A stretch of DNA of 64,000 nucleotides. It comes from Bacteroidota bacterium. Lineage in GTDB: Bacteria; Bacteroidota; Ignavibacteria; UBA10030; UBA8401. The notes under the pieces are model-generated. The model saw only the letters and a list, made by a program, of their open reading frames with translations, ran no database searches and was not told the DNA's origin. The first letter of the stretch is position 1, and every line of letters begins with the position of its first letter. Below are positions 1 through 32,100 of the stretch, piece by piece. The stretch lies in contig JBAYIS010000002.1 of the NCBI GenBank assembly GCA_041665525.1, positions 80,040-144,039 of the forward strand, read 5' to 3'. The position numbers and the translations under genes were made by a program.

Positions 1-194
1 ACCGTACTGTATGCCGTTGTCTGACCTGATGCAACATCATTAATATTGACGGTATTGCCCCCCGACGTCTGGATCTGAACATTTGCTTTATCCAAGCGTT
101 CATTTCGAATGCGGAATTGCGGGTCCTCTTCCGAGCAGCCGATCATTGCAAGGACTATTACAACAGCAAGAATATGTGCGAGAATTTTTTTCAT
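1..194 (-). CDS. lipoprotein, partial (N-terminal 64 aa in window; C-terminus lies beyond the left edge)
   Basis: ATG at 194-192 on the minus strand, preceded by AAGGAGAA about 8 nt upstream. It translates to MKKILAHILAVVIVLAMIGCSEEDPQF..., a signal peptide plus lipobox (LAMIGC). The reading frame stays open to position 1. Confidence 0.4.
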   Translation of the reverse strand, partial: MKKILAHILAVVIVLAMIGCSEEDPQFRIRNERLDKANVQIQTSGGNTVNINDVASGQTTAYST

Positions 195-513
195 ATGTTT
201 TTTCTCCTTTGACGAAATAGTGCATCATTGATTTCATTCTGACCAGCATTTACCAAAATTCCGGAACTTTGTTTACTCAGTGTACACACTTGTATATTTC
301 GCTTGTGTATAGTCCGAAATTGACCACAAGCCTCCTGTTCTGATATCTAATAAGGAATAATTTTCCGGCATAATAATTGTCTGATTTTTTCGGCCCGGAA
401 CGACAGACGGCACAGTGTTGTTCGATTCGGCATCCGTTGCCTGCAGGCTCGAACTTCCCCGCAGCTTTTTGTTGTGAGAGATGTTCATATGCTTTTCTTC
501 CTTCATCAATGCG

Positions 514-1269
514 TTATAAACCAAACAAAAGGCTGACAGTGAAGAGCATCGAATGGATGCTTCTGTCGTTGGAAATAAAATGTTTATCGTCCCCGACAGC
601 ATAGAGCGGATCTTTGCTGTCATTCAGCGCCAGATACGAATCGATTCGCTCATTGCCGGCAGGATTCATATCCAGCCATTCATTCCCGGAAATGTTCATA
701 AAATTATACGCCGTAGTGAAGTCGAGAGAAAGTAAAGGACCGATCGATACTTCGGCGCCAATGGTAAATCCTGCACCCAGGCGCGTGGCTTCTTTGACAC
801 TGTATGTTGCGCTGGGAATTTTTGAGACTCCCTGAAAATTTGCCTCACCGCTGAACCTGTTCCATGCCAGATTCACTCCGGCATACGGCCTGATCGGCAG
901 TGCCGGTATCGTGATATGGAATTCCGGCCCGACCTTCAATGATAGGATCTTCTGCGTTATTTCCACACTTCCCTGTCCCGGTTCACTGTTGCCGGTGTTT
1001 CCCAGCGATGAAAAATTTATCTCTCCAACCAGATCCACTCTTCCCAACCCCACTTTTCCTTTGCCGTGAATGTTTAATCCGCTGTTCTGTCCATATTTGG
1101 TACCGGTATAATATTCCATCGTGGAACCGTTTAGATCAGAAACAGCGCTGGTAATACCCACACCGGCCCCCGCTTTGAGATCCACCTGCGCCGTCATGAG
1201 CGGTGCAGTGATCATTGTCAGAAGAGCGATCGCGCCGATACATTTGGCGAGATATTGAATAATTGTCAT
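514..1269 (-). CDS. outer-membrane beta-barrel (porin-like/OmpA-like barrel) protein
   Basis: The ORF has a signal peptide (MTIIQYLAKCIGAIALLTMITAPLMTAQ) followed by alternating amphipathic beta strands rich in G/Y/N. Start moved to the internal Met that begins the signal peptide. Confidence 0.55.
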   Translation of the reverse strand: MTIIQYLAKCIGAIALLTMITAPLMTAQVDLKAGAGVGITSAVSDLNGSTMEYYTGTKYGQNSGLNIHGKGKVGLGRVDLVGEINFSSLGNTGNSEPGQGSVEITQKILSLKVGPEFHITIPALPIRPYAGVNLAWNRFSGEANFQGVSKIPSATYSVKEATRLGAGFTIGAEVSIGPLLSLDFTTAYNFMNISGNEWLDMNPAGNERIDSYLALNDSKDPLYAVGDDKHFISNDRSIHSMLFTVSLLFGL

Positions 1270-1370
1270 ACTTCCTCCGCTAACATTGTCGTGCGGTAAA
1301 TAATCTCTCGTTCTCAACAGATGCTGAGAACGAGAGTATCCGTATGTCTGCTATTCTTTTCAATTTTAGG

Positions 1371-3875
1371 TCACTTCAGCAAAACCATTTTCTTCATTGA
1401 AGAGAACGATCCGGATTCCAGACGGTAAAAATATACGCCACTGGCAAGGTTCAGTGCATCTGTCGAAAATGCAACGGCATATGTTCCGGCATCTTGCGAA
1501 CTATTCACCAGTGTTGCTACTTCTTCTCCAAGAATCGAATAGACCTTCAGCGTCACCTGAGCACCAATACTGATACTGTATTCAATCGATGTGGATGGAT
1601 TGAACGGATTCGGATAATTCTGTTGTAGTGCAAACTGAACGGGGATTGCATCCTGATTCGTGACTCCCGTTGTTCTTGGAAGTGAAATGGTTTTGTATGT
1701 TCCGCCCCATTCGCTCCCCCACCACGATTTGAAATACGAACCGCGTGCACTATCCCATGCTGCCATCGGATGCTGATATCCATCCGGATCGAAAATGGTC
1801 ATAGCAACCTTCAGATTGACGGTGCTTGTTGATGCTGTAAACCCGAGCGTACTTAGTTTGATCTTCAGTTCAGCCGTATATCCGTTGTCGATGTTCAATG
1901 TATCGTTCACTGTTGAACCTGCGGTTAAGAATCCCGCACCGGCGCCGGAATTCAGCACCTGTTCTTCGTAACGGATCGTATCTTTGTTGGCATCGGTATT
2001 CTGCCAGTACAATTTGAATTCTTTATCGTCTCCCGCCGAGTTTTTGATCTTCAAGAACAAACCGTCCGCTTCCCAATCGAATTTGCAGATAGATTTATCC
2101 GGAGACTGGATACCGATAAACAGTTCGTTTCCTTTCACAAGGAATTTTACTTTGGTATAGCTGGTGTCCTTGTACGGCAGATAGTATTGCACGCCGTTGA
2201 CGTTGAAACTATTTTTCACGTCGATTCCTCCGGTGACGGTTTTTTCCGTTCCGGTTGTGGGTGCAGTGGAAGGGCCGAAGACCAGTGTGTTTGCCGTGGC
2301 CCAATCCGTTTCCGTCAGTTTGCCGTCCATGGTGATGACGGAAGAAGAGATCTTTGCGGCAATCGTATCGGTATTGTCATACTCTTTGATGAAACCAAGC
2401 GTTCTGTACGTGCCGCCCCATTCGCTTCCCCACCACGATTTGTAGTATGAACCGCGGGCAGAATCCCACGAGTTCATCGGATGCTTGAATCCATCCGGAT
2501 CGAAGATCGTCATCGCCAATTCCAGCGAACTGAGCGATTGTGCATATCCCAGCGAACCCAATTTCAATTTCATTTCCGCGGTGTACCCGTTGTCGGTATT
2601 CGCCGTGTCGTTCACCGTAGAACCGACCGGCAGGAAACCTGCACCTGCGCCGGAATTCAAAACTCCTTCTTCGTATTTGATGGAGTCTTTATTTGCGTCG
2701 ATATTCTGCCAGTACAATTTATATTCTTTATCGACTCCAACGGAGTTTTTCACTTTCATGAAGAGGCCGTCTGCTTCCCAATCGAATTTGCAGATGGATT
2801 TGTCGTTCGACTGCAGACCGATATAGAGATCGGAACCGCGGCGGAGAAATTTTACCCGCGTCCACGAACTATCCTTGTTCGGCACATGATAGGTCACAGC
2901 ATTAACGTCAAATGATGCCTTCAGATCGAAGCCGGCTGTCACCGATTTGTCCCCTTCCAGTTTGCGTCCATCGGCTCCTTTGCCGAACAGCAGCGACGGC
3001 GCGCCGTTCCAATCTGCTTCGTCCAGCTTCCCGTCCAGGAGAACCGGTGCACCGGCATTCTTCACGATAAGCTTCAAAGGATCGTCGAATGGTTCAACCA
3101 CCGGCGGCAGTGTGACGGTGCTGGAGGCCAGTGTCACCGCAGCATTACTCGCGAGTGCCCTGCCGTCCAATGTTGCTCCTGTTCCAAGAGTTATGGATTG
3201 TGCCGCCAGGATCGTTCCTTTCATGATAGAGGTCGTGCCAAGCGCAGCAGATGTACCGACCTGCCAAAAAATATTTGATGCCTGCGCACCGCCGGAAAGA
3301 ACTACGTGAATGCCGTTGCCGACATTCAATGCTGCAGAGATCTGGAATATCCACACATCGGTTGCGGTACCGGTCAACGTTAGATCAGATCCGGTAATCA
3401 GCGCATCGCTGGTGAACTTATACAGTCCCGGGACGAGTGTTAAGCCTCCCATGTTGCCGGATCCCGGATTGAGGAATGTTCCGGTCGGTACTGGTGTGCG
3501 TCCTGCTGCTTCGTTAAAGGCAATCGTCAGATCCCCTTTTGCCGCTGTAAGCTGCGCCGGTGCCATGATGGAACCAACCGGCCCCGTAGCATCAACGGTG
3601 TAGATATTCCCGGTGATCTCGGTCAGACCAAAACCGGTGATCGCGCTTCCTGCAGCCGGACTTAAACCGATATTTCCCGTCACGTTTGATGTTGGTACGT
3701 TGGAGATCAATGATCCGGCAAGGATCACATAATCAGCCGTTGAACCTAAGTTCAGAGGTGCAATCGGTTGCGCGGAGACCGTTGCGCTGACCGCAATGAA
3801 GGCAGCAATACATAGACCGGTGAAACGCAACCAGAATGTTGAGCCCCGTGTTGGTGTTTTCGTAGTAATATTCAT
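1371..3875 (-). CDS. secreted DUF3494 (ice-binding-like beta-helix) protein with two tandem ~239-aa repeat domains and a T9SS C-terminal sorting domain
   Basis: GGGAGG RBS 6 nt upstream of ATG at 3875. Signal peptide, then DUF3494 hallmarks (YVILAGSLISN..TGNIGLSPAAGSAITGF ... ASNIFWQVGTSAALGTTS..GTILAAQSITLGTGATLDGRALA). Two near-identical ~239-aa modules (KSICKFDWEADGLF...WGSEWGGTY) follow. The T9SS CTD is NYPNPFNPSTSIEY...GVYFYRL...KKMVLLK. Confidence 0.85.
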   Translation of the reverse strand: MNITTKTPTRGSTFWLRFTGLCIAAFIAVSATVSAQPIAPLNLGSTADYVILAGSLISNVPTSNVTGNIGLSPAAGSAITGFGLTEITGNIYTVDATGPVGSIMAPAQLTAAKGDLTIAFNEAAGRTPVPTGTFLNPGSGNMGGLTLVPGLYKFTSDALITGSDLTLTGTATDVWIFQISAALNVGNGIHVVLSGGAQASNIFWQVGTSAALGTTSIMKGTILAAQSITLGTGATLDGRALASNAAVTLASSTVTLPPVVEPFDDPLKLIVKNAGAPVLLDGKLDEADWNGAPSLLFGKGADGRKLEGDKSVTAGFDLKASFDVNAVTYHVPNKDSSWTRVKFLRRGSDLYIGLQSNDKSICKFDWEADGLFMKVKNSVGVDKEYKLYWQNIDANKDSIKYEEGVLNSGAGAGFLPVGSTVNDTANTDNGYTAEMKLKLGSLGYAQSLSSLELAMTIFDPDGFKHPMNSWDSARGSYYKSWWGSEWGGTYRTLGFIKEYDNTDTIAAKISSSVITMDGKLTETDWATANTLVFGPSTAPTTGTEKTVTGGIDVKNSFNVNGVQYYLPYKDTSYTKVKFLVKGNELFIGIQSPDKSICKFDWEADGLFLKIKNSAGDDKEFKLYWQNTDANKDTIRYEEQVLNSGAGAGFLTAGSTVNDTLNIDNGYTAELKIKLSTLGFTASTSTVNLKVAMTIFDPDGYQHPMAAWDSARGSYFKSWWGSEWGGTYKTISLPRTTGVTNQDAIPVQFALQQNYPNPFNPSTSIEYSISIGAQVTLKVYSILGEEVATLVNSSQDAGTYAVAFSTDALNLASGVYFYRLESGSFSSMKKMVLLK

Positions 3876-4033: not shown

Positions 4034-5323
4034 TTAATGATTTTGTTTCTTCTCATCCTTGCAGTCTTTGTGCAACTGTATGTTACCGCCCAACAGCATT
4101 CCCGACAACTGGTATCCGTTGGAGAGTTGAATACTGAAACTATCCGAACGACCCGGTTCACCATTGTCAACCACAGTCACGGAATAGGAATAGGAACCAT
4201 TTCCGTTGACGGTTGCAAGCCCTTCAATACGACGCGTGACGGCATCGATAACAAAGTATCCGGTAACGCTCGTGCTTTTTACTTTTACGCCGTTTGCACT
4301 GTGGTCATCGTACGAGAGCTGACCCCAGAACTCATTGTGCTTGATCCCGCCGGAAACACCGAAAGTGGCCTTGGTATCCTTGTCATTCTTTTGTCCATCC
4401 GCTTTGATCCATCCTCCGCCGGTGATGAAATCATCACACACGGGTTGCGGGGGTAACGGTCCGCCATTGGAACTGCCGCAGACCGAGATGGTATCTTCGA
4501 TCATGGTCACGGCTCCATTCAACGCCAAGATTCTTCCATCAACGCTCGCACCGGAAGTCATTGTGATGGTGGTTGTCGCTATGACAGTTCCGATGAACTC
4601 AGCTCCGTCGATCGTTGCCGAAGAACCGATCGTCCAGTACACGTTCGATCCTGTGCAGGTCTGATTGGAACTGTTCAGTGCCACGACCTTGGAACCGGTC
4701 ATCGTGACCAGAGTCGAGCCCATTTGGAAAATGAAGAGAGCGTCATTGTTTCCCTGGAAATCAAGATAGATCGTACCGTTCACCTGAAGATTGGCAGATG
4801 GTGAAAAACTGTACACACCGGGAGTGAACGTCATACCATCCAGTTGCGTAACACCCGAATAGACCGTATTGGGTGTCTGAGCGATGAGATAATTGTAAGC
4901 AATCACTGCATCGTTATGCGCCTGAGCTGCTACTGGACCGCCGGCATAGATCGTGCCGTTGACGATACCCAAACCGGCTGTCACTGTTCCCGGCCCTGAA
5001 ATCAAGTTGATGGGTGAAGGTTGAAAACCTGTGATTGCGGTTCCCGGACTGACACCCAAATCACCATTGACCACGGAAGCGCCGTCGTTGGTAACGGTGG
5101 TTGCTCCCAAAACTGCGAACGTTGATGCCGTTCCCAGAATCGATATTTCTGAAGCCTTCAAAAGTGAACCAGAACGGCTTGCGTCATTTTGGTTATTGAG
5201 TGCCGTTGGTGTGTTTGAATCGCATCCGGCCAGGATTATCATAGCCGTAAAGAATATTAGAATACCAACCGCACGCGCCACATGATCAGCGGATGACCGG
5301 TGTCGAAGATTTACATTATTCAT
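4034..5323 (-). CDS. DUF3494 (ice-binding-like) lipoprotein with a distinct ~130-aa C-terminal domain, no T9SS CTD
   Basis: ATG at 5323 with GAGGA upstream. Lipobox ILAGCDS. DUF3494 motifs (FAVLGATTVTN..GDLGVSPGTAITGF ... TGSNVYWTIGSSATIDGAEFIGTVIATTTITMTSGASVDGRILALNGAVTM). Confidence 0.8.
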   Translation of the reverse strand: MNNVNLRHRSSADHVARAVGILIFFTAMIILAGCDSNTPTALNNQNDASRSGSLLKASEISILGTASTFAVLGATTVTNDGASVVNGDLGVSPGTAITGFQPSPINLISGPGTVTAGLGIVNGTIYAGGPVAAQAHNDAVIAYNYLIAQTPNTVYSGVTQLDGMTFTPGVYSFSPSANLQVNGTIYLDFQGNNDALFIFQMGSTLVTMTGSKVVALNSSNQTCTGSNVYWTIGSSATIDGAEFIGTVIATTTITMTSGASVDGRILALNGAVTMIEDTISVCGSSNGGPLPPQPVCDDFITGGGWIKADGQKNDKDTKATFGVSGGIKHNEFWGQLSYDDHSANGVKVKSTSVTGYFVIDAVTRRIEGLATVNGNGSYSYSVTVVDNGEPGRSDSFSIQLSNGYQLSGMLLGGNIQLHKDCKDEKKQNH

Positions 5324-5634
5324 GGTGTCCTCAATAGTTGTGTGAAAGAAATTGATGCTTTTGAATAAGCACTCAATACTTTCAAAAAAGTATCTCATTG
5401 TGAGATTGAATGGTAAATCATAATCAAGGGCGTTGTAACCAGTATTGTCCGGAGCAATCACCCCCGCGGAAACCGCGCACTAAAAACGCAATCACATGCT
5501 TCGGACTGATGGAAGTTGTTCGTCGCCCCCGGTTTACCTCATGTCTTAATGAATGGATACGTGAGAGAACACAAATATTGGAACATGAAAAAAATTACCC
5601 CGCCCTGACGGACGGGATATTCATTTCTCATTTG

Positions 5635-7632
5635 TTATTTCATCAGGACCAATTTCTTGGTAGAGATGAACTGATCCGCCTGCAGCCGGTAAAAATAGAT
5701 ACCGCTGGCAAGATTATTCACATCCGCAGTGAACCGGACAGTGTACACTCCTGCTTGCTGACGGTTGTTTACCAGCGTTGCGACTTCCTCTCCCAGAATG
5801 GAATAGACCATCAGCGATACCTGTGCAGCTGCGCCGATGCTGTATTCGATTGTGGTAGAAGGATTGAACGGATTCGGATAGTTCTGCGACAACGTGAATC
5901 CATCAGGCACAGTGGCCAATTGAACTTCATTAACAATCGGAATTCCGCCGATTGTTGTCGCATTCAACACTATCGAATCGGTTTTCGCCAATAATCGTCC
6001 ATAGACAACTGCTCCGTTGTTTGCTGTTATGGAAGATGAAGCCATAATGTTGCCACTGAATGTTGAGTTGGCTCCAAGTGTTGCCGAGGTTCCTACCTGC
6101 CAGAATATGTTGAACCATTGTGCACCATTGACGAGCTTCACATAACTTTCAGTCGCTGTGGTCAGCGCACCGGTCATTTTAAAGACCCATACTGCGCTCG
6201 CGTCACCCTTTGCATCAAGTGTCAGCGTATCGGTTACACCGAATGTGCCAAGACTGGAAGTATACACGCCTTGTGTATAGACTTTCCCGCTCAATTCAGA
6301 AGAGATGGTTGAATCGTTGCCACGGTCAACCGTACTGTCGTACGCCGCCTTCAACGCAAGCTGTGCAGCAGCAGAAGTTGCATTCCCCGGATGTTTTGCA
6401 CCTGTCACTGTTGCCGGTGGAAATCCTGTGATGACCGTGCTCGGGCTGACACCGATATCGCCGGTGATCGCTGTAAGACCGGTACTGACGATCTTTGAGC
6501 CGGCAAGGACTCTAAAATTAGCGGCTGTGCCAAGAAATACTGCCGGAGAAATTGTTGCTGTCGCTGTTCCCCCGATCGTATTGGATTGCAAAGTAACCGA
6601 TGCGGTCCGCGACATTGCTCTCCCTTCCAGCGATGCGCCGGTAGCAAACGTCACTGCCGTGTGCGCTAAGATTGTCCCTTTCATTTTGCACGTGGTACCG
6701 AACGTGGCCGCACTTCCGACCTGCCAGAAAATATTGGAAGCATTCGCGCCGCCGGCGAGAAAAATCTGGCGCCCTGATGTCATATTGAAGTTGGAAGCAA
6801 TCTGGAAAATCCACACCGCATTCACATCTCCTTGTGAATCAAGCGTAAGGTCACCATCGGTGATCTCCAGAGAACCGTTGGATTTATAGAGACCCGGGTA
6901 AAGCGTTCTGCCGCCAAGATTTCCGGAAACTCCGATCGGATCGACCGTCCGGCCCGCTGCATCGTTAAATGCAATTGTCAGATCGCCCATGGCAACGGTC
7001 AGCATCACCGGATATGGGATCGAACCGGATGGTCCGGTCGCATCAACTCCATAAATAGTTCCGACAACATTCGGTGTACCAAATCCGGTCATATACGATC
7101 CGGCAAGAGGACTTACCCCGACATTTCCGGTAATGACCGAAGGGCCCGTATTAGTGATTCCGGCATACGAAAGAATTGCAAATCCGCCGGACATACCGAG
7201 TGTAACCGGTAAGAGTGGTGTTATGGGAGTGATATTCCATGTCGTGAATTTCCGGGCGGTTGAGAAGGCGCTTTTTAATCCGCCATTCTTTGCACTATCC
7301 CGCACACTCACTCGCCAGTAATACGTGACAGAGTTTTTTAGTCCGGTGATGGAATGGGAAACTCCCGCAAGTGTGGAATCGTTATACAATGCGGTACCAA
7401 AGATATTGCTGGTATCAATTTGAAGATGATACGCACTATCGCCGGAAGCAGCCTGCCATTGTAATTGGATTGTAGTTGATTGATTGATTGCCCCATTGGC
7501 AGGTGATAATAGCACCGGCACTAACTGGGCAACAGCGGTTGTGCTGATCAACAGCACAGTGACAAGTGCGGTTCCGAAGAACCGTTTCATGCGTCCGCTA
7601 AGCGGTTTGGAATACAGTGAATTCGTTTTCAT
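5635..7632 (-). CDS. secreted protein: FN3-like domain, two tandem DUF3494 domains, T9SS C-terminal sorting domain
   Basis: Signal peptide. N-terminal FN3-like module (LLSPANGAINQ..YYWRV). Two DUF3494 copies (ASNIFWQVGSAATFG.. and QWFNIFWQVGTSATLG..). CTD QNYPNPFNPSTTIEY..GIYFYRL..KKLVLMK. Confidence 0.85.
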   Translation of the reverse strand: MKTNSLYSKPLSGRMKRFFGTALVTVLLISTTAVAQLVPVLLSPANGAINQSTTIQLQWQAASGDSAYHLQIDTSNIFGTALYNDSTLAGVSHSITGLKNSVTYYWRVSVRDSAKNGGLKSAFSTARKFTTWNITPITPLLPVTLGMSGGFAILSYAGITNTGPSVITGNVGVSPLAGSYMTGFGTPNVVGTIYGVDATGPSGSIPYPVMLTVAMGDLTIAFNDAAGRTVDPIGVSGNLGGRTLYPGLYKSNGSLEITDGDLTLDSQGDVNAVWIFQIASNFNMTSGRQIFLAGGANASNIFWQVGSAATFGTTCKMKGTILAHTAVTFATGASLEGRAMSRTASVTLQSNTIGGTATATISPAVFLGTAANFRVLAGSKIVSTGLTAITGDIGVSPSTVITGFPPATVTGAKHPGNATSAAAQLALKAAYDSTVDRGNDSTISSELSGKVYTQGVYTSSLGTFGVTDTLTLDAKGDASAVWVFKMTGALTTATESYVKLVNGAQWFNIFWQVGTSATLGANSTFSGNIMASSSITANNGAVVYGRLLAKTDSIVLNATTIGGIPIVNEVQLATVPDGFTLSQNYPNPFNPSTTIEYSIGAAAQVSLMVYSILGEEVATLVNNRQQAGVYTVRFTADVNNLASGIYFYRLQADQFISTKKLVLMK

Positions 7633-7707
7633 AAAGCCTCTTTCGATTGGATAGTTGTGGAGTGTATCAAATATCGGACGGAGATTCGTATCCGTCGATC
7701 AGAGATA

Positions 7708-10181: not shown

Positions 10182-10220
10182 TGTTGCCCCCGATATTATT
10201 GTGGAGAATTTTCTCCCGTA

Positions 10221-11990
10221 CTATTTCAGAAGGATCATTTTTTTTGTGGAAACAAAACCATTAACATTCAAACGATAGAAATACATACCGCTCGTCAGAG
10301 ATTTGGAATCTTGGTGTGCAACAAAAGGAATGGAATATTGTCCTGCGCGCTGCATTTTATTCACCATTGTCGATACTTCTCTTCCCATCGCATCATACAC
10401 GATTAATGATACATGTCCATTTACCGCTACTTGATATGATATCATCGTTGTGGGATTGAATGGATTCGGATAGTTTTGAAACAGTATGTAATCAGAAGGA
10501 GCTGCACTACCCATTCCGACGGATGTTGTTACTCCGCTTTTCATGATACGTGAAGCATAAATATCAAAATTTCCGGATCGCTGATCCTGCCAGGCAATAA
10601 TCACTCCGCCGCTGCCGTCGCTGGCAGTGCTCGGATTTGTTTGCGTGCTGTCCGCCGTGCCGATCGGCATTCCGTTGGCTGTCCATGGAAAAGCAAAACT
10701 GCCGGTGATCCGCGACGCATACACATCGTATGTATTGTGGTTGATGCTGCTGTCCCGTTTATCGATCCATGTGATCACCGCGCCATTGCTGCTGTCCGTG
10801 ACAATAGTCGGATGCGACTGGTTTCCGGCAGCACTGCTGACGATGATCCCATTCACATTCCAACCTGTTGCAACAACTCCGGTTGAATCGACACGCTGGG
10901 CATAGATGTCGGACGTAATTCCGGTTCGGAAATCTTCCCATGTCATCAATGCACCGCCAACACCATCGCTCACCAGTCGAGGATTGATCTGATCATACGC
11001 CACATTGTTATTCATCACCGTTCCGTTTACCACCCATCGAATGGCGACTTCTGCTGTCATCCGCTGGACCCAAATATCGATTGATGTGGTGCTGCGGAAA
11101 TCTTCCCATACAATAATCGCGCCGCCGTTGCCGTCGGCGCAAATGTCCGGATTGGTTTGATCTGTTGCCATGGTGCAGACCGCTCCGCCGTTGGCGATGC
11201 CGATGACACCGCCGATGGCGCTGACGTGTTGTGTATAGATATCATAATTTCCCGCACGCTGATCGTACCATGTAAGATATGCCCCGCCGCTGCCGTCATC
11301 GATAATTCTCGGTCCATGCTGCGCTGCAGCTTCGGTGCATACTCCGATGCCGTTAGCGGTCCATTGAGAAACACCGGCTGCATTTACTCGCTGAATGTAG
11401 ATATCAGCAAGCCCGGGACCGGCGTTGCTGCGAAAATCTTCCCACGCAAATAATGCTCCTCCCTTGCCGTCGCTCACCATGGCAATGTTTGTTTGATCAA
11501 ATACCGTTACGCACACAGGGGTACCGGATGCCGGTCCCCATTGCAACACACCGGATGCATTGACCCGCTGGGTATAAATGTCATAATTGCCGCTTCGCTT
11601 GTCCTGCCACGAGATAATAGCTCCACTGTTCCCGTCGCCGATGATGGTTGGATTGATTTGATTGCTGTCCGCCGCACAGATTACTATCCCATTCGCCGCC
11701 CATTGTACCGATCCGGCGGCATTGATTCGCTGTGCATACAGATCATAATTCCCATTCCGTTTATCCTGCCAGACAATAAACGCGCCGCCGGCACCGTCGC
11801 CGACAGCAGCGGGATTGATCTGATCGTTGGCAGAGTTGCTGATTAGTGTATTCACTTTGGGATCGCCGGACCATTGCGAATGAAGGAGGGTCGGAATCAT
11901 TAGAAAAATTCCGCCGAATACGATACTGGAAAATAGTCGGCGCAGAGAGGATGTTTGTAAGAGAACAGTGGTGATGGTATAAATTTTCAT
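10221..11990 (-). CDS. repeat protein (~10 tandem ~55-aa beta-propeller-like repeats) with T9SS C-terminal sorting domain
   Basis: Signal peptide. The repeated motif G(D/N)G.GGA.I.W.D.R.GNYDIY.QRV...G...W..NG recurs about 10 times. The C-terminus is a CTD (FQNYPNPFNPTTMISY...GMYFYRL..KKMILLK). Confidence 0.8.
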   Translation of the reverse strand: MKIYTITTVLLQTSSLRRLFSSIVFGGIFLMIPTLLHSQWSGDPKVNTLISNSANDQINPAAVGDGAGGAFIVWQDKRNGNYDLYAQRINAAGSVQWAANGIVICAADSNQINPTIIGDGNSGAIISWQDKRSGNYDIYTQRVNASGVLQWGPASGTPVCVTVFDQTNIAMVSDGKGGALFAWEDFRSNAGPGLADIYIQRVNAAGVSQWTANGIGVCTEAAAQHGPRIIDDGSGGAYLTWYDQRAGNYDIYTQHVSAIGGVIGIANGGAVCTMATDQTNPDICADGNGGAIIVWEDFRSTTSIDIWVQRMTAEVAIRWVVNGTVMNNNVAYDQINPRLVSDGVGGALMTWEDFRTGITSDIYAQRVDSTGVVATGWNVNGIIVSSAAGNQSHPTIVTDSSNGAVITWIDKRDSSINHNTYDVYASRITGSFAFPWTANGMPIGTADSTQTNPSTASDGSGGVIIAWQDQRSGNFDIYASRIMKSGVTTSVGMGSAAPSDYILFQNYPNPFNPTTMISYQVAVNGHVSLIVYDAMGREVSTMVNKMQRAGQYSIPFVAHQDSKSLTSGMYFYRLNVNGFVSTKKMILLK

Positions 11991-12094
11991 AGTATTGGTA
12001 TTGGTAAAAATTTGGTGTCTATAGTTCTATTGTGAATTTCTCCTCCCCCGTCGTTTTGATTTTAACGGGGGTGAGCAATTCACACGATCGTAAA

Positions 12095-12919
12095 TTATAA
12101 TGCTGTCTTTACCACTGTACTGCCGGCCATGGTTATTCCGCCGATTCGCGCTAATAAATGTCCTTCAACAGACGCTCCGGTATTCAATGAGATCGATTGA
12201 TCGGCCATGATTGTACCTTTAAAAACCGATGTGGTTCCGAGCGTTGCAGACGTACCAACCTGCCAGAAGATATTCGAAGCCAGCGCGCTCCCTTTCAAAA
12301 TTATTTTCCGACCGGAGGTCATGCTGAGAGTGGAGGCAATCTGAATGATGAATACGGCATTTGCATTTCCTTTTGCATCGAATGTTAGTTCGCCGGAAGA
12401 GATTTCCAACGAGCCGCTTGATTTATAGAGTCCGGGCGTGAGTGTCACACCGCCGATGTTGCCGGCAAGTAGAACAATGTCTGTTGCTGTTCGCCCTGCA
12501 GCATCATTATAGGCTGTTGTCAGATCCCCTTTTGCAGCAGTTAGCATTGCCGGTGTGCCGACAGGCGAAACGTCATCGGCTGCATAAATAGTCCCGGTTA
12601 CTTCCGTTAACCCGAAGCCGGTAATGAACGATCGCGCTGCGGGGCTGATCCCGATGTCGCCTGTGATTGCTGATGTGGGAACATTCGAAATAAGCGATCC
12701 CGCCAGAAGTGCAAATCGTGCGGTGGTGCGGAGATTCACTTTGGCCTGTACTGTGGTCTGGAGCGGTATAACGATCGGCGTCGTGCCGACAACTGTTCCG
12801 TCGTCGTTACCACAACCGGTAAATACCAGTCCCATGAATATTGCAACCGATAGTGCAATAATAGCGCTATGCTTCCAAGTGATTGGCCGAAGAGAATTAT
12901 GTATGTGCATGATGTTCAT
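12095..12919 (-). CDS. DUF3494 (ice-binding-like) lipoprotein, single domain, no CTD
   Basis: GGAG RBS upstream of ATG at 12919. Lipobox VFTGCGND. DUF3494 motifs (FALLAGSLISNVPTSAITGDIGISPAARSFITGF ... ASNIFWQVGTSATLGTTSVFKGTIMADQSISLNTGASVEGHLLA). Confidence 0.75.
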   Translation of the reverse strand: MNIMHIHNSLRPITWKHSAIIALSVAIFMGLVFTGCGNDDGTVVGTTPIVIPLQTTVQAKVNLRTTARFALLAGSLISNVPTSAITGDIGISPAARSFITGFGLTEVTGTIYAADDVSPVGTPAMLTAAKGDLTTAYNDAAGRTATDIVLLAGNIGGVTLTPGLYKSSGSLEISSGELTFDAKGNANAVFIIQIASTLSMTSGRKIILKGSALASNIFWQVGTSATLGTTSVFKGTIMADQSISLNTGASVEGHLLARIGGITMAGSTVVKTAL

Positions 12920-13370: not shown

Positions 13371-13531
13371 CTAGAAGTGGTCTCAAAAATGAATTTTATT
13401 TGTCATTCCGAACGACGACCCAATTGGTCAAGTGAGGAATCTCGATTTTACTATTGAAGATAAAAACAAGATTTCTCGATGCTTCGCATCTCGAAATGAC
13501 AGTGATTAGGTATTTTTGAGACCACTTCTAG
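13371..13531. repeat. MITE-like palindromic element with perfect 20-bp terminal inverted repeats
   Basis: CTAGAAGTGGTCTCAAAAAT at 13371-13390 is the exact reverse complement of ATTTTTGAGACCACTTCTAG at 13512-13531. There is additional internal imperfect dyad symmetry (TGTCATTCCGA / TCGAAATGACA). No ORF lies inside. Confidence 0.5.
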
Positions 13532-13581: not shown

Positions 13582-15570
13582 TTATTCCGGAACTATATCA
13601 ATAATGACAGACCTATTATAGAAGCGTTGCTCCGGGAAATAATTGTCAAACGGTGCATACTGACTGTCTTCACCGAATGCAATGGTTTCGAAAGTCACAG
13701 TCTGTTTTTTGCTTTTCGAAAGACTGTTTTCGATGATCCGGCGAACACCTTCAACGCGCTCACTGGACAGATTCTCATTATATTCTTCTTCGCCGATGAT
13801 ATCGGTATAACCATGAATCACCACAATACCGCTGTCGGGAATCTGCGGCACAATCACTTCCGTCAAAAATTTTTCATAGCTGGCGACTGTTTTCGATTTA
13901 TCAAAATCAAAGAGGATGCTGTACCGTACTGCTTCACGTTTCGGAGCATCTCTGCGGATTAAGTGTACGGTAGATTCTTTGCGGACAGATTTCCCGCTCT
14001 TGGTCTGTGCCAGCATCACCACAGTATAGTTACCCTGGGCCCTGCCGCCGAGAATGGTATTCCCCGGAATAGTCATTCGTTCTTTGGTGTATGGCCCGAA
14101 CCGCTGAACTTTTCCGGCACTGTCTATTACCTCAATTGACCATGAGGAAAATGCCTCTTTCGCACCGGGGGCGTCGAAGAACACATGACTATCCAACGGA
14201 TCTTCCACAACGGCGACAATTTGAACCGGTTTTAACATATAATGTGGACCGCCGCCGACTTGTATCATCAGTTCCGGCGAAGCGCTCTCAATATCTACTC
14301 TATTATCACCTTCACGGATCAATATCAGTTCTTTTGTTCCGCCGATGATCTCCGAAGGGACTTTGGGTTTGTCGCGTCCTTCGGTCGTGATTCTTGCAGA
14401 ATCTATTCCAAAGACATTGACCAAATAGAGTTTTACCGATTCAGCACGTTCTTTTCCCTGCAATTCCCCGGCACCCGACGAACCACTCAAGTGAACTGAC
14501 GTTCCCGGATTCCGTCTCATCCTGTCCCCAACAACATTTAGAATGTTGTAATAGACGGTCATTTGGCGAAGCGAGCGGCCGGTATTATTTTTCGGCTGCA
14601 CTTCCTGTAACTCTTCTTCCTTAAAATTCACCGCTTCTGCCTTCGTCAGCTTCTCATACCGCATCGGGATAGCCGCTGATCCTTCTTCGAAGAAAACATA
14701 ATCTCGCATCGGGAATGATTCACGCACTCTCCGTTTTACCGGAACTGCTTTCGGAGCCCGGACAGAAAACTTCACATCCTTTTCGATAATGACTGCTTCC
14801 GGCGGCACATACGCTTGTTCTACAACATCACCGCTGCCGAATGTCAACGATACACCAACACGAACAGTGGAAACTGCCCACGTCTCAACAGAACGGGGAT
14901 CCTGTCCAAAATACGGTTGGAATGAAACGAACGGCGACAATTCCCATTGGGTCTCGGCATCCGACGCGCTGAGCGGAATTGCATATCCCACGCCGATCTG
15001 ACCGGATAACACAAGGCTGTTCATATCGCTGAACTCTCCCTGTGTGGTCGATTGTCCTTCGTGAACAAAAAGAAATTTCTTCTCATCCGGTGAGGAGAAC
15101 GAAAAATTATACCCGATCCTCGGGCCGCCGAAAATGTAGAATTCATCTTCAAAGGGAGAGAAACGGAGACTGGGTTCAAATGAAATGTAACTGATCGTTG
15201 CGTTCAGGGTCGAGTTTTCACCGCAGGGACACGGAACATCGAAAAATGCTGCGCGTCGATCGTCATATCCTAATTGCAGTATGCCGCCCCACATGGTATT
15301 CGGTCGATATTCTAAAACGGGCGCGAGATAAATGCCCGCACCAAATCCTTTATGAAATGCCGTTGGTACCGATAATCCGGAATTCAGCATCTGTGTTGTT
15401 CCGCCGTAGAAATTCAAGTTGACCGCTCCGGCTCCGCCATACCACCATACCGGAGTGGAATACTGTTCCTCCTGTGCCGGTGCGGTGGCTGCGACAAACA
15501 CCATTGCGCAAGCAATCATGAGACTGCGTACGAGTGCTGATTTTTTACTGTTCGATTGAAATTGATACAT
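13582..15570 (-). CDS. OmpA-family outer-membrane protein (N-terminal beta-barrel, central domain, C-terminal OmpA peptidoglycan-binding domain)
   Basis: Signal peptide (ACAMVFVAATAPAQ). G/Y-rich barrel strands. The C-terminus carries the OmpA-C signature (VIHGYTDIIGEEEYNENLSSERVEGV). Confidence 0.8.
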   Translation of the reverse strand: MYQFQSNSKKSALVRSLMIACAMVFVAATAPAQEEQYSTPVWWYGGAGAVNLNFYGGTTQMLNSGLSVPTAFHKGFGAGIYLAPVLEYRPNTMWGGILQLGYDDRRAAFFDVPCPCGENSTLNATISYISFEPSLRFSPFEDEFYIFGGPRIGYNFSFSSPDEKKFLFVHEGQSTTQGEFSDMNSLVLSGQIGVGYAIPLSASDAETQWELSPFVSFQPYFGQDPRSVETWAVSTVRVGVSLTFGSGDVVEQAYVPPEAVIIEKDVKFSVRAPKAVPVKRRVRESFPMRDYVFFEEGSAAIPMRYEKLTKAEAVNFKEEELQEVQPKNNTGRSLRQMTVYYNILNVVGDRMRRNPGTSVHLSGSSGAGELQGKERAESVKLYLVNVFGIDSARITTEGRDKPKVPSEIIGGTKELILIREGDNRVDIESASPELMIQVGGGPHYMLKPVQIVAVVEDPLDSHVFFDAPGAKEAFSSWSIEVIDSAGKVQRFGPYTKERMTIPGNTILGGRAQGNYTVVMLAQTKSGKSVRKESTVHLIRRDAPKREAVRYSILFDFDKSKTVASYEKFLTEVIVPQIPDSGIVVIHGYTDIIGEEEYNENLSSERVEGVRRIIENSLSKSKKQTVTFETIAFGEDSQYAPFDNYFPEQRFYNRSVIIDIVPE

Positions 15571-15710: not shown

Positions 15711-18700
15711 TTATGGTGTTGGAACATATACTGTTGAAGCAGCACCATCCAAAGCAAGCGTACTGGCACCGAGCGCGCCGGCTAATAATCTGCCATAAAC
15801 CGTTGTTCCGCCGGCAAGCGTAAGGTCCCCGCCAGCCAGAACATTTCCGTAGAAGATTGTTCCCGATCCTATCGACGCAGCCGCTGTCGGTACGAAGAAC
15901 ACATTCTTCTGCTGAGCCGATCCGGTGAGTGTCACATCGCCCCCCGGTGCTCCGGAGAATGTCGACAATGAGGAACCGATCTGGAAGACCCAGACGGCAT
16001 CCGCATTGCCGCCGCCGTCGAGAATGACCGGTGTATTGATCAATAAAGTACTGCTGGAAGTATAGGTTCCCGGAGGAAGACGACCCGGAGGATTTGCACC
16101 AACAATAAACGAACCTAAGTCCTGACCATCAGGCACGGTGATACCTACTGGTTTATTCTTGGCAAAATTAAATGCTGTTGTCAGATCGGTATATACCGCC
16201 GAAGCGACTCCATCGGCAATGTGTAATTCACCATGCACTTGCGCTGCCAATAATCCATTGGAATTGCCCGGGAACATTGCGACATCACCCCATATTTGGG
16301 AGGCTCCGCTGGCATCGGTGATCGCAGATGACGATAAGATTCCATATGTGCTGGCTAAGCCAAGCGGTACCGCACCCGGTGCCAGACCATCGCCGGTGGT
16401 AAAGCGCCAAACCGTTGAATAAGCACTTGTTCCGCCGCTGTTCTTTGCATTCACACGCCAGTAATATGTGGTATTGATTTTCAAGCCTGTAACGGGTTTT
16501 ATCAGACCTAGTACCGTAGAATCATTCACGACTGGATTCGCAAAGACTTGACTCGTATCCAGCTGCACTCTGTACGATGAGGCTCCGTTCGAAGCGAGCC
16601 AGCTCAGTGACAGATTCAATTTCTGATCGATCGCTGCATCCAGCGGTGCTGAGAGAATCGGCGGCTGTGGAACAGTAAGTATTACTGTAAAGCTCCGCAC
16701 GATGGAATATGGGCTGGTTCCGGAACCATTCTTTGCATTGACACGCCAGAAGTATGTCGTTCCGTTCACCAGACCGGTAATAGGCTGTGATGTGCCGGTA
16801 ATAGTTGAATCATTGAAGAGCGTTGTCGCAAAGGTATTGCTCGTGGAAAGCTGCAAGCGATACGTATTGGCACCGATCGATGCGTTCCAGCTGAGTGACG
16901 GATTTGTCGGTCGGTTTGTCGCCAAATCACTCGGTGCGATTAATGTAGGCGCTAACGGTACGGCGGTTGTATTAAAGCTCCAAACCGTTGAAAACACGCT
17001 TGTTCCAGCCGCATTCTTTGCGTTCACACGCCAGAAGTAAGTTGTTCCAACCGATAAGCCGGAAATTAGCTGCGATGTGCTTGTGCGGGTGGAATCATTA
17101 TAGAGTGTTGTTGCAAAAGTATTGACGGTGGAAACCTGTACACGGTATGTCGATGCACCGGCGACGGAATTCCATATCAGTGTCGGATTTGCCGATTGGT
17201 TGGTTGCGCTATTAAGCGGCGCCACTAACACCGGCGCTGATGGCGCAACGATGGTCGTGAAGCTACGAATGGAAGAGTACACGCTTGTACCGGCAGCATT
17301 TTTTGCATTCACACGCCAGAAATATTGTGTTCCGACAGCGAGTCCACTTACCTGCTGCGACGTACTGGTGAGTGTTGAGTCATTATAGGTTGTTGTCGCA
17401 AACGTGTTCACCGTCGACACCTGCAATCGATACGTCGACGCACCGGAGACAGCAAGCCAGATCAGTGAAGGATTCACCGACTGATTGATCGCTGCATCGG
17501 TCGGAGCAAAGAGCACCGGCGCTGCGGGTGCAACAATGGTCGTAAAGCTTCGGATCGTTGAATAGGCACTCGTTCCGGCAAGGTTCTTGGCATTCACTCT
17601 CCAGAAGTATGTGGTGCCGATCGCCAGGCCAGTAACCTGTTGTGATGTACTGGTGCGGGTCGAATCATTATAGACTGTTGTCGCAAACGTATTGCTGGTG
17701 GAAACCTGCAGACGATACGTTTCGGCTGCCGGCACATCGTTCCAGATGAGTGTCGCTATGACGGGTTGATTGATCGCCGCATTAAGCGGAGTAACCAGTG
17801 TGGGTACTGCCGGCGCGGCAATCGTCGTAAAGCTCCAAACATCCGAATACTCGCTAGTCTGTCCGGATATTTTGGAATTCACACGCCAGAAATACGTGGT
17901 GCCAATGGAGAGTCCGGATATCAATTGCGATGTATTGGTCAGCGTCGAATCGTTGAAGAGTGTTGATGCAAAAGTATTGGACGTGGAAACTTGTAATCGA
18001 TATGAACCGGCTCCGGGAACTACATTCCACACAAGCGTCGAATTGACAGCCTGATGAAGTGCTCCGTCAAGCGGAGCAACGAGTGTCGGAGTTCCTGCGC
18101 TGATTGTTGTAAAGCTGCGTGATGAATACGTGCTTGTTCCTGCCGCATTCTTTGCACTAACGCGCCAGAAATATCCGGTTCCCCCGACTAATCCGGTCAC
18201 CTGCTGCGATGTCCCGGTAATTGTAGCATTGTTATAGACGGTGTTCACAAACGAACTGGAAGTCGAAACTTGCAGTGTGTATGAACTTGCTCCCGGTGAC
18301 GCTGTCCAACTAAACGTAGGACTGGTGGAAATATTTATTGCAGAAGCATTCGGTGTAACGAGCACCGGTGCTGCCGGAACAGCGATTGTCGAAAAATTCC
18401 AGACATTGGAATAGGCGCTTGTTCCGCCGGAAATCTTTGAATTCACTCTCCAATAATATGTTGAACCTACGGTCAGCCCCGATACCACGGTGGAAGTGTT
18501 GGTCAGTGTTGAATCATTGAAAACGGTAACAACAAATCCCGGATCAAGCGATACCTGCAGACGGTAGGATGATGCGCTCTGCACAGTATTCCAGGTGAAT
18601 GTCTGAATTATTGATTGATTGATTGCCCCGTCGATCGGCGAAACAAGCACCGGCGTGCCGGCAGCAATGGTCGTAAAGGACCAGACATACGCAGCCGCAA

Positions 18701-19187
18701 GCGGTGTGCCGACTCTATCTTTTACGCCGGTCGTGAGTGTGCACGTATAAGTGAGATTTGGAGCAAGCCCGTCCTGAACGACCAAGATCGCAGTAGTATC
18801 CGAGTACGATACGTTGGAAAGCAGAACTGTCGTTCCCTGTTTGATGATGAATGTCGACGAGTTTATGGTTCGTGCATCCATCGGAGTGCTGAATGTTGCG
18901 GTAACAATTTTAACGGCGACGGGTTTTAGTATTTTCGTGCCGCCCATTTTTTTACTCAATGACTCATTCGTCCCTCCGTCAACAGGAGAGGTCCGAATAA
19001 CAGTCGGGGCTGCGCAGACGTTCACTGTTCCGACCACTTCATCTCTGCATCCGCTCATAAACAGCACGGAAAGAATGGTGGTGGTAAAAAAAATCGCTGC
19101 AACAGTTCCGAGAAGTTTCCGATGTGTGCGGGGATAACCGGACCGTCGGTTGATTGGTGATGTTTGGTGTGTTGTGAGAGTATTCAT
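15711..19187 (-). CDS. giant lipoprotein: Ig/Big-like domain, 8 tandem FN3-like repeats, C-terminal DUF3494 (ice-binding-like) domain
   Basis: Lipobox LFMSGCRD. Big-like N-terminal domain. Eight ~94-aa repeats each ending in ..T(Y/F)(Y/F)WRVN(A/S)KN..G.S.YS. The C-terminal ~230 aa are DUF3494-like (ADAVWVFQIGSSL ... KNVFFVPTAAASIGSGTIFYGNVLAGGDLTLAGGTTVYGRLLA). No T9SS CTD. Confidence 0.85.
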   Translation of the reverse strand: MNTLTTHQTSPINRRSGYPRTHRKLLGTVAAIFFTTTILSVLFMSGCRDEVVGTVNVCAAPTVIRTSPVDGGTNESLSKKMGGTKILKPVAVKIVTATFSTPMDARTINSSTFIIKQGTTVLLSNVSYSDTTAILVVQDGLAPNLTYTCTLTTGVKDRVGTPLAAAYVWSFTTIAAGTPVLVSPIDGAINQSIIQTFTWNTVQSASSYRLQVSLDPGFVVTVFNDSTLTNTSTVVSGLTVGSTYYWRVNSKISGGTSAYSNVWNFSTIAVPAAPVLVTPNASAINISTSPTFSWTASPGASSYTLQVSTSSSFVNTVYNNATITGTSQQVTGLVGGTGYFWRVSAKNAAGTSTYSSRSFTTISAGTPTLVAPLDGALHQAVNSTLVWNVVPGAGSYRLQVSTSNTFASTLFNDSTLTNTSQLISGLSIGTTYFWRVNSKISGQTSEYSDVWSFTTIAAPAVPTLVTPLNAAINQPVIATLIWNDVPAAETYRLQVSTSNTFATTVYNDSTRTSTSQQVTGLAIGTTYFWRVNAKNLAGTSAYSTIRSFTTIVAPAAPVLFAPTDAAINQSVNPSLIWLAVSGASTYRLQVSTVNTFATTTYNDSTLTSTSQQVSGLAVGTQYFWRVNAKNAAGTSVYSSIRSFTTIVAPSAPVLVAPLNSATNQSANPTLIWNSVAGASTYRVQVSTVNTFATTLYNDSTRTSTSQLISGLSVGTTYFWRVNAKNAAGTSVFSTVWSFNTTAVPLAPTLIAPSDLATNRPTNPSLSWNASIGANTYRLQLSTSNTFATTLFNDSTITGTSQPITGLVNGTTYFWRVNAKNGSGTSPYSIVRSFTVILTVPQPPILSAPLDAAIDQKLNLSLSWLASNGASSYRVQLDTSQVFANPVVNDSTVLGLIKPVTGLKINTTYYWRVNAKNSGGTSAYSTVWRFTTGDGLAPGAVPLGLASTYGILSSSAITDASGASQIWGDVAMFPGNSNGLLAAQVHGELHIADGVASAVYTDLTTAFNFAKNKPVGITVPDGQDLGSFIVGANPPGRLPPGTYTSSSTLLINTPVILDGGGNADAVWVFQIGSSLSTFSGAPGGDVTLTGSAQQKNVFFVPTAAASIGSGTIFYGNVLAGGDLTLAGGTTVYGRLLAGALGASTLALDGAASTVYVPTP
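16380..18700 (-). repeat. DNA-level tandem array, about 8 copies of a ~285-bp unit encoding the FN3-like repeats
   Basis: The block ttcacacgccagaa(a/g)ta recurs at about 16451, 16741, 17025, 17311, 17594, 17880, 18160 and 18445, a period of 283-290 bp. This causes the spurious repeated plus-strand ORFs (FFAFTRQKY...). Confidence 0.8.
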
Positions 19188-19251
19188 GGATCCCTCTGTA
19201 AGATGGTATTGGTGATAGATAATACTTGCATAGCTCGTATCATGCCGGTGA

Positions 19252-32099: not shown

Positions 32100-32100
32100 T

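Follow-up and report, generated by a model that had tools for sequence, protein, structure and literature searches.

A conserved DUF3494 gene array with three predicted routes for surface display of ice-binding-like domains in a relative of the Ignavibacteria

The first 19.2 kb of a 64,000-nt stretch of bacterial DNA (the window: positions 80,040 to 144,039 of contig JBAYIS010000002.1, assembly GCA_041665525.1, Bacteroidota bacterium) contains nine consecutive genes on the minus strand and a tenth at 514-1269. Seven of these genes encode proteins with the DUF3494 (ice-binding-like) domain. Judged from the encoded sequences, the locus very probably specifies a system for displaying DUF3494 binding domains on the cell surface. 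The best explanation that we can offer is stress-regulated surface display of ice-binding domains via three routes, and we put the likelihood of that fuller account slightly above even.

The DUF3494 locus and its predicted display routes

The profile PF11999 (Ice_binding, DUF3494) was found in seven minus-strand genes between 1371 and 19187 in a Pfam search, with E-values from 2.5e-29 to 6e-116 and scores of 102.9-385.8 bits for the seven proteins, the gathering score of the profile being 28.7 bits. An eight-copy hidden Markov model (HMM) run against the 64-kb window located exactly eight DUF3494 domains, every one within 1-19250. Both searches agree with a preliminary description of this DNA, which had counted seven genes and eight copies, two of them in the gene starting at 7632, and the domains are genuine members of the DUF3494/IBP-1 family. 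Thr, Ser, Ala, Gly and Asn make up 51-57% of the domains, and charged residues are few. The gene starts at 3875, 5323, 7632, 8787, 10181, 12919 and 19187 give proper signal peptides, mostly with a GGAGG-like ribosome-binding site upstream; the GenBank form of the 12919 gene is a 274-aa protein (MFA6467652.1) annotated as 'ice-binding family protein'. The genes of the locus, with the positions of their DUF3494 domains and their type IX secretion system (T9SS) C-terminal domains, are as follows.

514..1269 (-), gB: small outer-membrane beta-barrel protein of 251 aa, encoded at the array's downstream end (PF13505, 31.6 bits)
1371..3875 (-), g1: signal peptide, DUF3494 (3114-3725), two ~235-aa CBM9-like units, T9SS C-terminal domain
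4034..5323 (-), g2: lipobox LAGC, divergent DUF3494 (4487-5113), C-terminal post-COAP-1 domain
5635..7632 (-), g3: signal peptide, one FN3, two DUF3494 (5950-6510 and 6574-7176), T9SS C-terminal domain; PF11999 in two stretches, 6e-116
7708..8787 (-), g4: signal peptide, DUF3494 (8029-8640), T9SS C-terminal domain; the minimal T9SS form
8910..10181 (-), g5: signal peptide, divergent DUF3494 (9507-10022), ~115-aa spacer, T9SS C-terminal domain
10221..11990 (-), gP: eight ~55-aa propeller-like repeats and a type A T9SS C-terminal domain, without DUF3494
12095..12919 (-), g6: small lipoprotein, lipobox FTGC then G-N-D-D, single DUF3494 (12113-12706); PF11999 3e-65
13582..15570 (-), gO: 662-aa OmpA/OprF-like outer-membrane protein
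15711..19187 (-), g7: lipobox MSGC then R-D-E, Big_5, eight FN3, DUF3494 (15744-16340) at the extreme C-terminus
19252..19578 (-): 108-aa CsbD-like small stress protein heading the array (PF05532, 56 bits, cutoff 40)
20027..20680 (-): LuxR/NarL-type response regulator, receiver and GerE helix-turn-helix (Pfam Response_reg and GerE)

The lipoboxes, T9SS C-terminal domains, stalk of eight FN3 repeats and internal duplication named in the preliminary description were all recovered, as were the interleaved outer-membrane barrel gB, the OmpA-like gene gO and the eight-repeat propeller-like T9SS cargo gP. Profile matches support the individual assignments: PF11999 scored 1.3e-58 in g1, 1.5e-46 in g2, 3.6e-59 in g4 and 2.3e-30 in g5, and the sorting-domain profile PF18962 gave 35 bits in g1, 27.1 bits in g4 and 29.5 bits in g5. 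The FN3 repeats of g7 number exactly eight and occupy aa 178-939. The most conserved member of the array is g6, with hundreds of relatives at 70-91% identity.

Some modules had previously been overlooked. The duplicated ~235-aa unit of g1, whose copies share 75% nucleotide identity over 438 nt, is CBM9-like (CBM9_1, PF06452; 29.4 bits, cutoff 23.4). The DUF3494 domain of g2 carries an additional insertion of ~16 aa and is followed by a post-COAP-1 domain (NF041523; 142.6 bits, cutoff 40). This cysteine-containing module of ~120 aa (window 4034-4430) stands in place of a T9SS C-terminal domain. The ~115-aa spacer ahead of the C-terminal domain of g5 (aa 226-340; window 8910-9500) gave no profile match; its motif, LPVEL..F......L.W.T..E.NN.GFEIER....W..LGFV.G.G......Y.F.D.....G.Y.YRLKQID.DG, looks like that of a widespread beta-sandwich module of T9SS cargo.

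Because every protein has an export and an anchoring signal, it was reasonable to suggest, as had been done earlier, a 'dedicated surface-coat or adhesion system', and the combinatorial anchoring named with it is real, conserved and divisible into three routes. The lipoboxes and the residues from the cysteine onward are LAGC and C-D-S-N in g2, FTGC and C-G-N-D-D in g6, and MSGC and C-R-D-E in g7. Among the best 120 members of the g6 family, 102 have a lipobox followed by (S/K)-K-D-D-(T/S). Lipoproteins of Bacteroidetes are directed to the cell surface by a K-(D/E)2 or Q-A-(D/E)2 signal (Lauber et al. 2016, PMC5080379). The consensus of the g6 family, C-(S/K)-K-D-D, agrees with K-(D/E)2, a signal defined in Capnocytophaga, Bacteroides and Flavobacterium but not in the present lineage. 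A lipobox and then a basic/acidic motif, such as C-R-D-E, C-K-E-E or C-A-K-E-E, were present in each of the eight stalk proteins examined. Type A T9SS C-terminal domains were identified in g1, g3, g4, g5 and gP (TIGR04183, 34.5-41.4 bits with g4 at 34.5; cutoff 23), and these proteins combine the sorting domain and a signal peptide at the N-terminus, as type A cargo does.

In the mechanism that we propose, the Bacteroidota export signal would cause the lipoproteins g6 and g2 to flip to the outer membrane's outer face, so that their domain is held near the membrane. The lipoprotein g7 would project one domain on a stalk of Big_5 and eight FN3 repeats, and is encoded together with gO. By the third route g1, g3, g4 and g5 would leave through the T9SS and then be attached to the surface or released; these proteins would present one or two DUF3494 domains, to which g1 would add its CBM9-like carbohydrate-binding units.

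The stalked lipoprotein and its OmpA-like partner

The gO protein begins with a signal peptide and matches OmpA (PF00691; 41.9 bits, cutoff 27.2) and OMP_b-brl_2 (PF13568; 29 bits, cutoff 27). With an N-terminal outer-membrane beta-barrel and a C-terminal OmpA_C peptidoglycan-binding domain it has the composition of the OmpA/OprF family. An AlphaFold2 model based on 68 sequences (pLDDT 82.3) comprised a barrel of ~10-12 strands (aa 42-246), an alpha/beta domain (aa 279-430), a beta-sandwich (aa 444-540) and the OmpA_C domain (aa 547-660). The top Foldseek matches of the model were E. coli OmpA, the peptidoglycan-binding domains of OprF and OmpA, and the OmpW and OpcA barrels, with a probability of 1.00 for OmpA and OprF. 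The protein is too small for a translocon.

Homologs of gO are numerous (2384 matches, ~650-700 aa), the best 120 being 55-89% identical. The g7-gO pair is adjacent in the window and in the related contigs L082/83, L089, L090/91, L092/93, L094 and L096; L082/83 is a rice-paddy metagenome contig of 819 kb (Joint Genome Institute (JGI) 3300044712, Newark, Delaware), sampled in the growing season. In L094, L095 and L096, whose gO homologs are 58-62% identical, a gene for a Big_5-FN3-DUF3494 protein lies just upstream of each. The two genes are immediate neighbours in L094 and L096, where no further DUF3494 gene was found nearby, while a second DUF3494 gene intervenes in L095.

Scanning metagenomes with the gO alignment gave 79 loci (47-62% identity), of which the 58 with more than 1.5 kb of upstream sequence were scored. 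A same-strand DUF3494 open reading frame (ORF) adjoined the gO homolog upstream in all 58, and 54 of these ORFs carried the DUF3494 domain at their extreme C-terminus. Of the 52 upstream ORFs whose N-terminus is complete, 29 had a lipobox with an acidic residue, a lower bound given by a crude regular expression. Sixteen of the gO loci had at least 7 kb on both sides; 10 carried one DUF3494 gene, three carried two and three carried three. Since a single DUF3494 gene is present in 10 of these 16 well-flanked loci, the stalk-gO pair is the widespread unit, and seven-gene arrays are an expanded minority. The minimal module of stalk and gO was spread over many kinds of JGI metagenomes.

By analogy with pairs of an adhesin and an OmpA-like protein, we infer that gO is a staple between the outer membrane and the peptidoglycan, dedicated to the stalked lipoprotein. 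With its barrel in the outer membrane and its periplasmic domains on the peptidoglycan, it would stiffen or anchor the envelope where it is pulled on by the stalk. A comparable pair is AtaA-TpgA of Acinetobacter sp. Tol5, in which the gene for a fibre adhesin is immediately followed by that for an OmpA_C-domain protein tying the adhesin site to the cell wall. The likeness lies in the gene for a long surface adhesin being paired with one for an OmpA-like peptidoglycan anchor. However, AtaA is a trimeric autotransporter whereas g7 is a lipoprotein, the sequence relationship is limited to the OmpA_C domain, and a weak match to NCBIfam NF047726 is the sole computed link.

The closest parallel to g7 itself is SfIBP_1 of Shewanella frigidimarina (Protein Data Bank (PDB) 6BG8), which according to PMC9957290 has a membrane anchor, a tandem beta-sandwich tether and a distal DUF3494 domain; the predicted architecture of g7 has all three elements. 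The proteins differ in that g7 has Big_5 and eight FN3 repeats instead of BIg repeats, comes from a different phylum and is paired with an OmpA-like gene. The tethered form of SfIBP_1 was proposed as an ice adhesin (Vance et al. 2018). A functional analogue is MpIBP of Marinomonas primoryensis, a 1.5-MDa RTX ice adhesin (PMC5550230) that likewise presents an ice-binding domain on a long stalk, but has an unrelated ice-binding fold, more than 130 domains and type I secretion. A fixed pairing of a stalked DUF3494 protein with an OmpA-like protein was not found in the DUF3494 literature searched, nor was anchoring of DUF3494 proteins by T9SS or lipoprotein export signals, nor an array headed by CsbD and response-regulator genes; coverage of that literature was incomplete.

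The ligand of the displayed domains

The sequences point to ice as the most likely ligand, with a likelihood that we put at a little over one half. The g6 protein matches 25 PDB sequences of solved DUF3494 ice-binding proteins, the best being EfcIBP (6EIO; 53-55% identity over 232 columns, E 2.9e-65), and the tip of g7 also matches 25 PDB sequences, led by 6EIO (5.8e-20) and including SfIBP_1 (6BG8, 2.5e-15). Thermal hysteresis and cryoprotection have been measured for EfcIBP (PMC10992025), and a Nostoc protein 52% identical to it was made recombinantly and studied as an ice-binding protein (PMC7783341). EfcIBP and g6 share the DUF3494/IBP-1 fold without a capping insertion and an N-terminal export signal, and their identity includes the linker before the domain. 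They differ in setting: EfcIBP comes from a polar marine source (a bacterium of the Antarctic Euplotes focardii consortium) and is secreted as a lone single-domain protein, whereas g6 belongs to a seven-gene locus of a soil bacterium and is a lipoprotein whose motif resembles an export signal. The two-domain protein IBPv of Flavobacteriaceae bacterium 3519-10 (PDB 5UYT), which matches g6 in two stretches at 8.5e-41, resembles g3 in having two DUF3494 domains in one secreted protein; g3 differs in its additional FN3 and T9SS C-terminal domains.

Residues of the ice-binding B face were compared with those of AnpIBP, in which mutation of S153 or T156 lowers activity to 17%. Mapped by motif and not by structure, hydroxyls equivalent to S153 and T156 are kept in six of the eight domains. 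The equivalents of the AnpIBP segment S153-S-A-T156-L-G are TSATLG in the second domain of g3 (g3b), g4 and g6, SSATID in g2 and g5, and SAATFG in the first domain of g3 (g3a); g1 and g7 have each lost one B-face hydroxyl. Ice-binding domains displayed in this way would coat the cell and the surrounding water film and inhibit recrystallisation, and, as soil or sediment freezes and thaws, the coat could adhere to ice or give it structure. Ignavibacteria of tundra are reported to increase in activity below 0 C (Gadkari 2020, cited by PMC8445667).

Several observations weigh against this account. The motifs that follow the lipobox cysteine in g6 and g7 of the window only approximate K-(D/E)2, and it is from gene order and motifs that we infer surface exposure, stress induction and the physical link between g7 and gO. 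The domains of g2, g3b, g5 and g7 are divergent, at just 28-40% identity to the core clade of the array. None of the proteins reaches the 400-bit cutoff of the NCBIfam equivalog NF045625 (IBP_CFB), their scores being 57-255 bits; they are relatives of the flavobacterial ice-binding proteins covered by that model, not equivalogs. The CBM9-like units point to a ligand other than ice for at least g1. The preliminary description had cautioned that the ligand might not be ice, and the caveat is justified by the provenance of close relatives: the sole traced sample is from a temperate rice paddy in the growing season, and relatives 81% identical to g6 are named as Ignavibacteria metagenome-assembled genomes (MAGs) of a 'CG' series, which we take to be non-freezing samples from the Crystal Geyser aquifer. 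DUF3494 proteins also occur in the tropics and in hot springs, and Raymond suggests other substrates for them (PMC7783341).

The strongest alternative is accordingly a general adhesin or coat, with the same anatomy and export, in which DUF3494 binds an ordered surface other than ice, for example that of a mineral, of a crystalline polysaccharide or of another cell. The temperate paddy relative, the relatives in 'CG' MAGs, the CBM9-like units, the unreached equivalog cutoff and the distribution of the minimal stalk-gO module over so many kinds of metagenomes would all fit such a function, and in the literature the family has been called 'ice-binding and substrate-binding', with members noted in the tropics and in hot springs. 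On the other hand, g6 is 53-55% identical to a validated ice-binding protein, the B-face motif critical in AnpIBP is kept in most of the domains, temperate soils freeze seasonally, and no other ligand for PF11999 proteins was found in the literature examined. We therefore regard this alternative as a serious one, with a probability well below even. A more specific version, to which we give somewhat less credence still, is that the stalked DUF3494 lipoprotein and its ~660-aa OmpA-like partner form an obligately linked and previously undescribed adhesin module for a ligand that is not ice, widespread in Bacteroidota, Ignavibacteria and Fibrobacterota of soils, sediments and groundwater. If so, DUF3494 would be a general adhesion domain for flat ordered surfaces, and the polar ice-binding proteins a specialised offshoot. 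Four PDB entries for a 'DUF3494 domain-containing protein' (9LHS, 9LI0, 9LHN and 9LHR) match g6 at 1e-28 to 1e-40, and may bear on functions other than ice binding.

T9SS cargo can be released or anchored, and for type A cargo these two fates appear indistinguishable at the level of sequence. The T9SS members of the array might therefore be released as soluble 'public-good' antifreeze proteins, leaving just the lipoproteins on the cell. Most characterised DUF3494 ice-binding proteins are secreted single-domain proteins, and tandem genes have been proposed as a route to bulk secreted protein (PMC9957290). However, three members are lipid-anchored and the locus encodes a dedicated envelope anchor, so that at least part of the system would be cell-bound, and we consider release of all the T9SS members improbable.

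Arrays of this general kind are known. In Arctic sea-ice MAGs, adjacent DUF3494 genes occur in numbers of up to nine per MAG, with double and triple domains, Ig-like tethers including pfam13205_pfam13205_pfam11999 (Big_5-Big_5-DUF3494), and response-regulator genes nearby (Winder et al. 2023, PMC9957290). The window resembles these arrays in its side-by-side genes, double domains, tethers and nearby response regulator. No T9SS C-terminal domain, lipoprotein export signal, CsbD or OmpA-like partner is reported in that polar marine survey, and the present locus differs also in its temperate soil or sediment setting and in a gene order conserved across lineages. Neighbouring ice-binding-like genes with shuffled domains and tethered forms have thus already been published, and the bare observation of such an array is not new. 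DUF3494 is the commonest microbial ice-binding fold, and it is abundant even in organisms of habitats where freezing is rare or never occurs. The locus offers a concrete handle on the reasons for this abundance, being operon-like and conserved and bringing together a response regulator, a stress protein, three display routes and the gO partner, and its domains may be of practical use as a source of recrystallisation inhibitors from mesophiles.

Conservation, age and regulation of the array

Gene order in the rice-paddy contig L082 is the same as in the window: response regulator, CsbD, g7, gO, g6, gP, g5, g4, g3, g2 and g1. Amino acid identities between orthologs are 72-96%, g5 being the fastest-evolving pair at 72%. 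Other contexts (L084, L086, L087, L089, L090/91 and L092) were reached via relatives of g6 at 73-81% identity. L092 has the response regulator, CsbD, a 1142-aa stalk-DUF3494 protein, a 667-aa gO-like protein, g6-like and gP-like genes, followed by four DUF3494 genes that have sorting domains and by one further DUF3494 gene. In L084 the response regulator and CsbD-like gene are followed by g6-like and gP-like genes and two DUF3494 genes with sorting domains. L087 has the response regulator, CsbD-like and g6-like genes and two DUF3494 genes with sorting domains, after which comes an ortholog of gB (56% identical). L090/91 contains a DUF3494 gene with a sorting domain, a g6-like gene, a Big_5-DUF3494 gene with a sorting domain, a 1291-aa stalk-DUF3494 protein and an OmpA barrel, and encodes a protein also present in the Ignavibacteria 'CG' MAGs. 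L086 has two DUF3494 genes side by side, and L097 an array comparable to that of the window. Reduced or expanded versions of the locus were present in all nine further distinct contexts examined.

L089, from a MAG labelled Fibrobacterota (GCA_043802925.1), encodes a 1517-aa Big_5 stalk-DUF3494 protein, an OmpA barrel, a g6-like protein and three multi-DUF3494 T9SS proteins; in its interval 7619-12935, one T9SS protein has three DUF3494 domains in tandem and another has four. Across a nominal phylum boundary, the g6-type protein of L089 and g6 of the window share 75% identity, and this similarity suggests either transfer of a cassette or loose labelling of the MAG.

Orthologs of gP are syntenic in L082 (10911-12677, 84%), L084 (10957-12738, 67%) and L092 (10943-12742), and in the closer relatives the gene always comes directly after the g6-type lipoprotein. 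The repeats of gP follow the motif DQxNP..DGxGG..W-x-D-x-R..DIYxQR; the match to the beta-propeller repeat TIGR04275 was sub-threshold, and a single-sequence AlphaFold2 model of gP gave no usable fold (pLDDT 32). A contig scan with g4 as query was dominated by the T9SS C-terminal pattern EQNYPNPF and does not amount to a census of species genomes: 76 of its 80 loci were unrelated T9SS cargo of Ignavibacteria and Bacteroidota MAGs, and only L002-L005 contained DUF3494. It identified the T9SS C-terminal domain as of the Ignavibacteria type.

The preliminary description had put g1 (1371-3875) and g4 (7708-8787) at about 80% DNA identity and had proposed recent duplication or gene conversion. These two genes are 70.0% identical over 620 nt (67% amino acid identity over 257 aa), the closest paralogs as a whole reach 69-70% in DNA, and patches of 77-89% identity between paralogs are only 44-121 nt long. 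In codon alignments of the four closest domains, third-position identity was 31-37%, so that synonymous sites are near saturation. The longest identical runs among these domains were 11-17 nt (p 0.03-0.56 against column permutation, uncorrected for six pairs), and no convincing gene-conversion tract stood out above permutation in the six pairs. When domains of the related loci were included in a neighbour-joining tree, each window domain had its own 1:1 ortholog in L082, with the paralogs on long separate branches. The 1:1 orthologs, long branches and near-saturated synonymous sites together indicate that the array members are old paralogs. Modules have nevertheless been exchanged inside the locus: the FN3 of g3 is 36-45% identical to the stalk repeats of g7, and C-terminal sorting domains are 55-67% identical though their DUF3494 domains are 33-40% identical.

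We regard the locus as chromosomal and, from its 1:1 orthologs in L082, as vertically inherited. No integrase or transposase was found at the locus in the Pfam annotation of the window, and its GC content of 0.45-0.51 does not shift from the 0.41-0.50 found elsewhere in the window. The label 'accessory island' does not fit a locus that is syntenic in L082/83 and L092, lacks mobility genes and has unremarkable GC. The locus is not strain-specific, as it recurs gene for gene in L082, and the conserved synteny extends to the related lineages sampled, a narrower set than the whole phylum; the outcome named as refuting in the preliminary description, a conserved and syntenic locus, is therefore borne out in part. 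Eight copies of one domain in 19 kb, the short patches of high inter-paralog identity and a tRNA-Arg(TCT) gene at 21282-21356 could have marked a strain-specific island formed by recent duplication or gene conversion, but that origin is very unlikely, and in its strong form already refuted, given nine genes in the same order in L082 with 1:1 orthologs at 72-91%, comparable arrays in L092, L089 and L097, the third-position divergence without conversion tracts or mobility genes, and the position of the tRNA gene beyond the regulator, facing away from the locus.

The head of the locus is conserved with the array. Orthologs of the response regulator (E 1e-41 to 1e-124) lie upstream of DUF3494 genes in L082, L084, L087, L092, L095 and L096. 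CsbD-like orthologs of ~105 aa, 55-96% identical, directly precede the first DUF3494 gene in L082, L084/85, L087/88, L092 and L095; L096 has the regulator without a CsbD-like gene. The LuxR-type response regulator is the probable regulator of the locus and, because it and the CsbD-like stress protein stand at the head, expression would probably be stress-induced. Upstream of the regulator, and separated from it by the tRNA-Arg gene on the opposite strand, is a 1902-aa hybrid histidine kinase (21541-27249) with GAF, approximately seven PAS, HisKA/HATPase and receiver domains. This kinase was considered as the cognate sensor and rejected: PAS-rich kinases were found upstream only in L084 (36% identity) and L090, and none was adjacent in L082.

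Eleven upstream regions of array genes contained neither the Bacteroidia -7 motif TAnnTTTG nor shared 9-mers or an operator motif, and a sigma-70 promoter scan gave fewer matches than expected from shuffled sequence. Weaker stem-loops follow most array genes. The lack of TAnnTTTG, the GGAGG-like Shine-Dalgarno sites and the stem-loops after most genes suggest a style of translation and transcription unlike that of classical Bacteroidia. ClpX of the window is 75% identical to that of Ignavibacterium and 85-97% identical to those of Bacteroidetes/Bacteroidota bacterium MAGs. On the basis of these identities, the Shine-Dalgarno-like sites and the missing TAnnTTTG motif, the host is an uncultured member of the Fibrobacteres-Chlorobi-Bacteroidetes (FCB) group near Ignavibacteria and not a classical member of Bacteroidia.

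Three non-coding features were located within the array.

1305..1336 (-): strong terminator-like hairpin with a 14-bp stem, 3' of g1
5596..5619 (-): terminator-like hairpin with a 10-bp stem and a T run, just 3' of g3
13371..13531: insertion of 161 bp resembling a miniature inverted-repeat transposable element, bounded by perfect 20-bp terminal inverted repeats (CTAGAAGTGGTCTCAAAAAT) and located in the 660-bp spacer that separates gO from g6

The inserted element has one copy in the window, is absent from the otherwise syntenic L082, and is probably not part of the system. The rest of the 64-kb window is ordinary chromosome, with tig-clpP-clpX, fab genes, gcvP, rnc and a PorZ-like gene. The T9SS core genes porK-N, sov and porV are absent from the window, and the N-terminal propeller of the PorZ-like gene at 57580-59865 matches PF21544 with 75 bits. 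Encoded in the interval 31503-36134 are a protein of 198 aa that has a T9SS C-terminal domain, with an S8 subtilase directly downstream of it, and a BNR/sortilin-like propeller with a C-terminal sorting domain.

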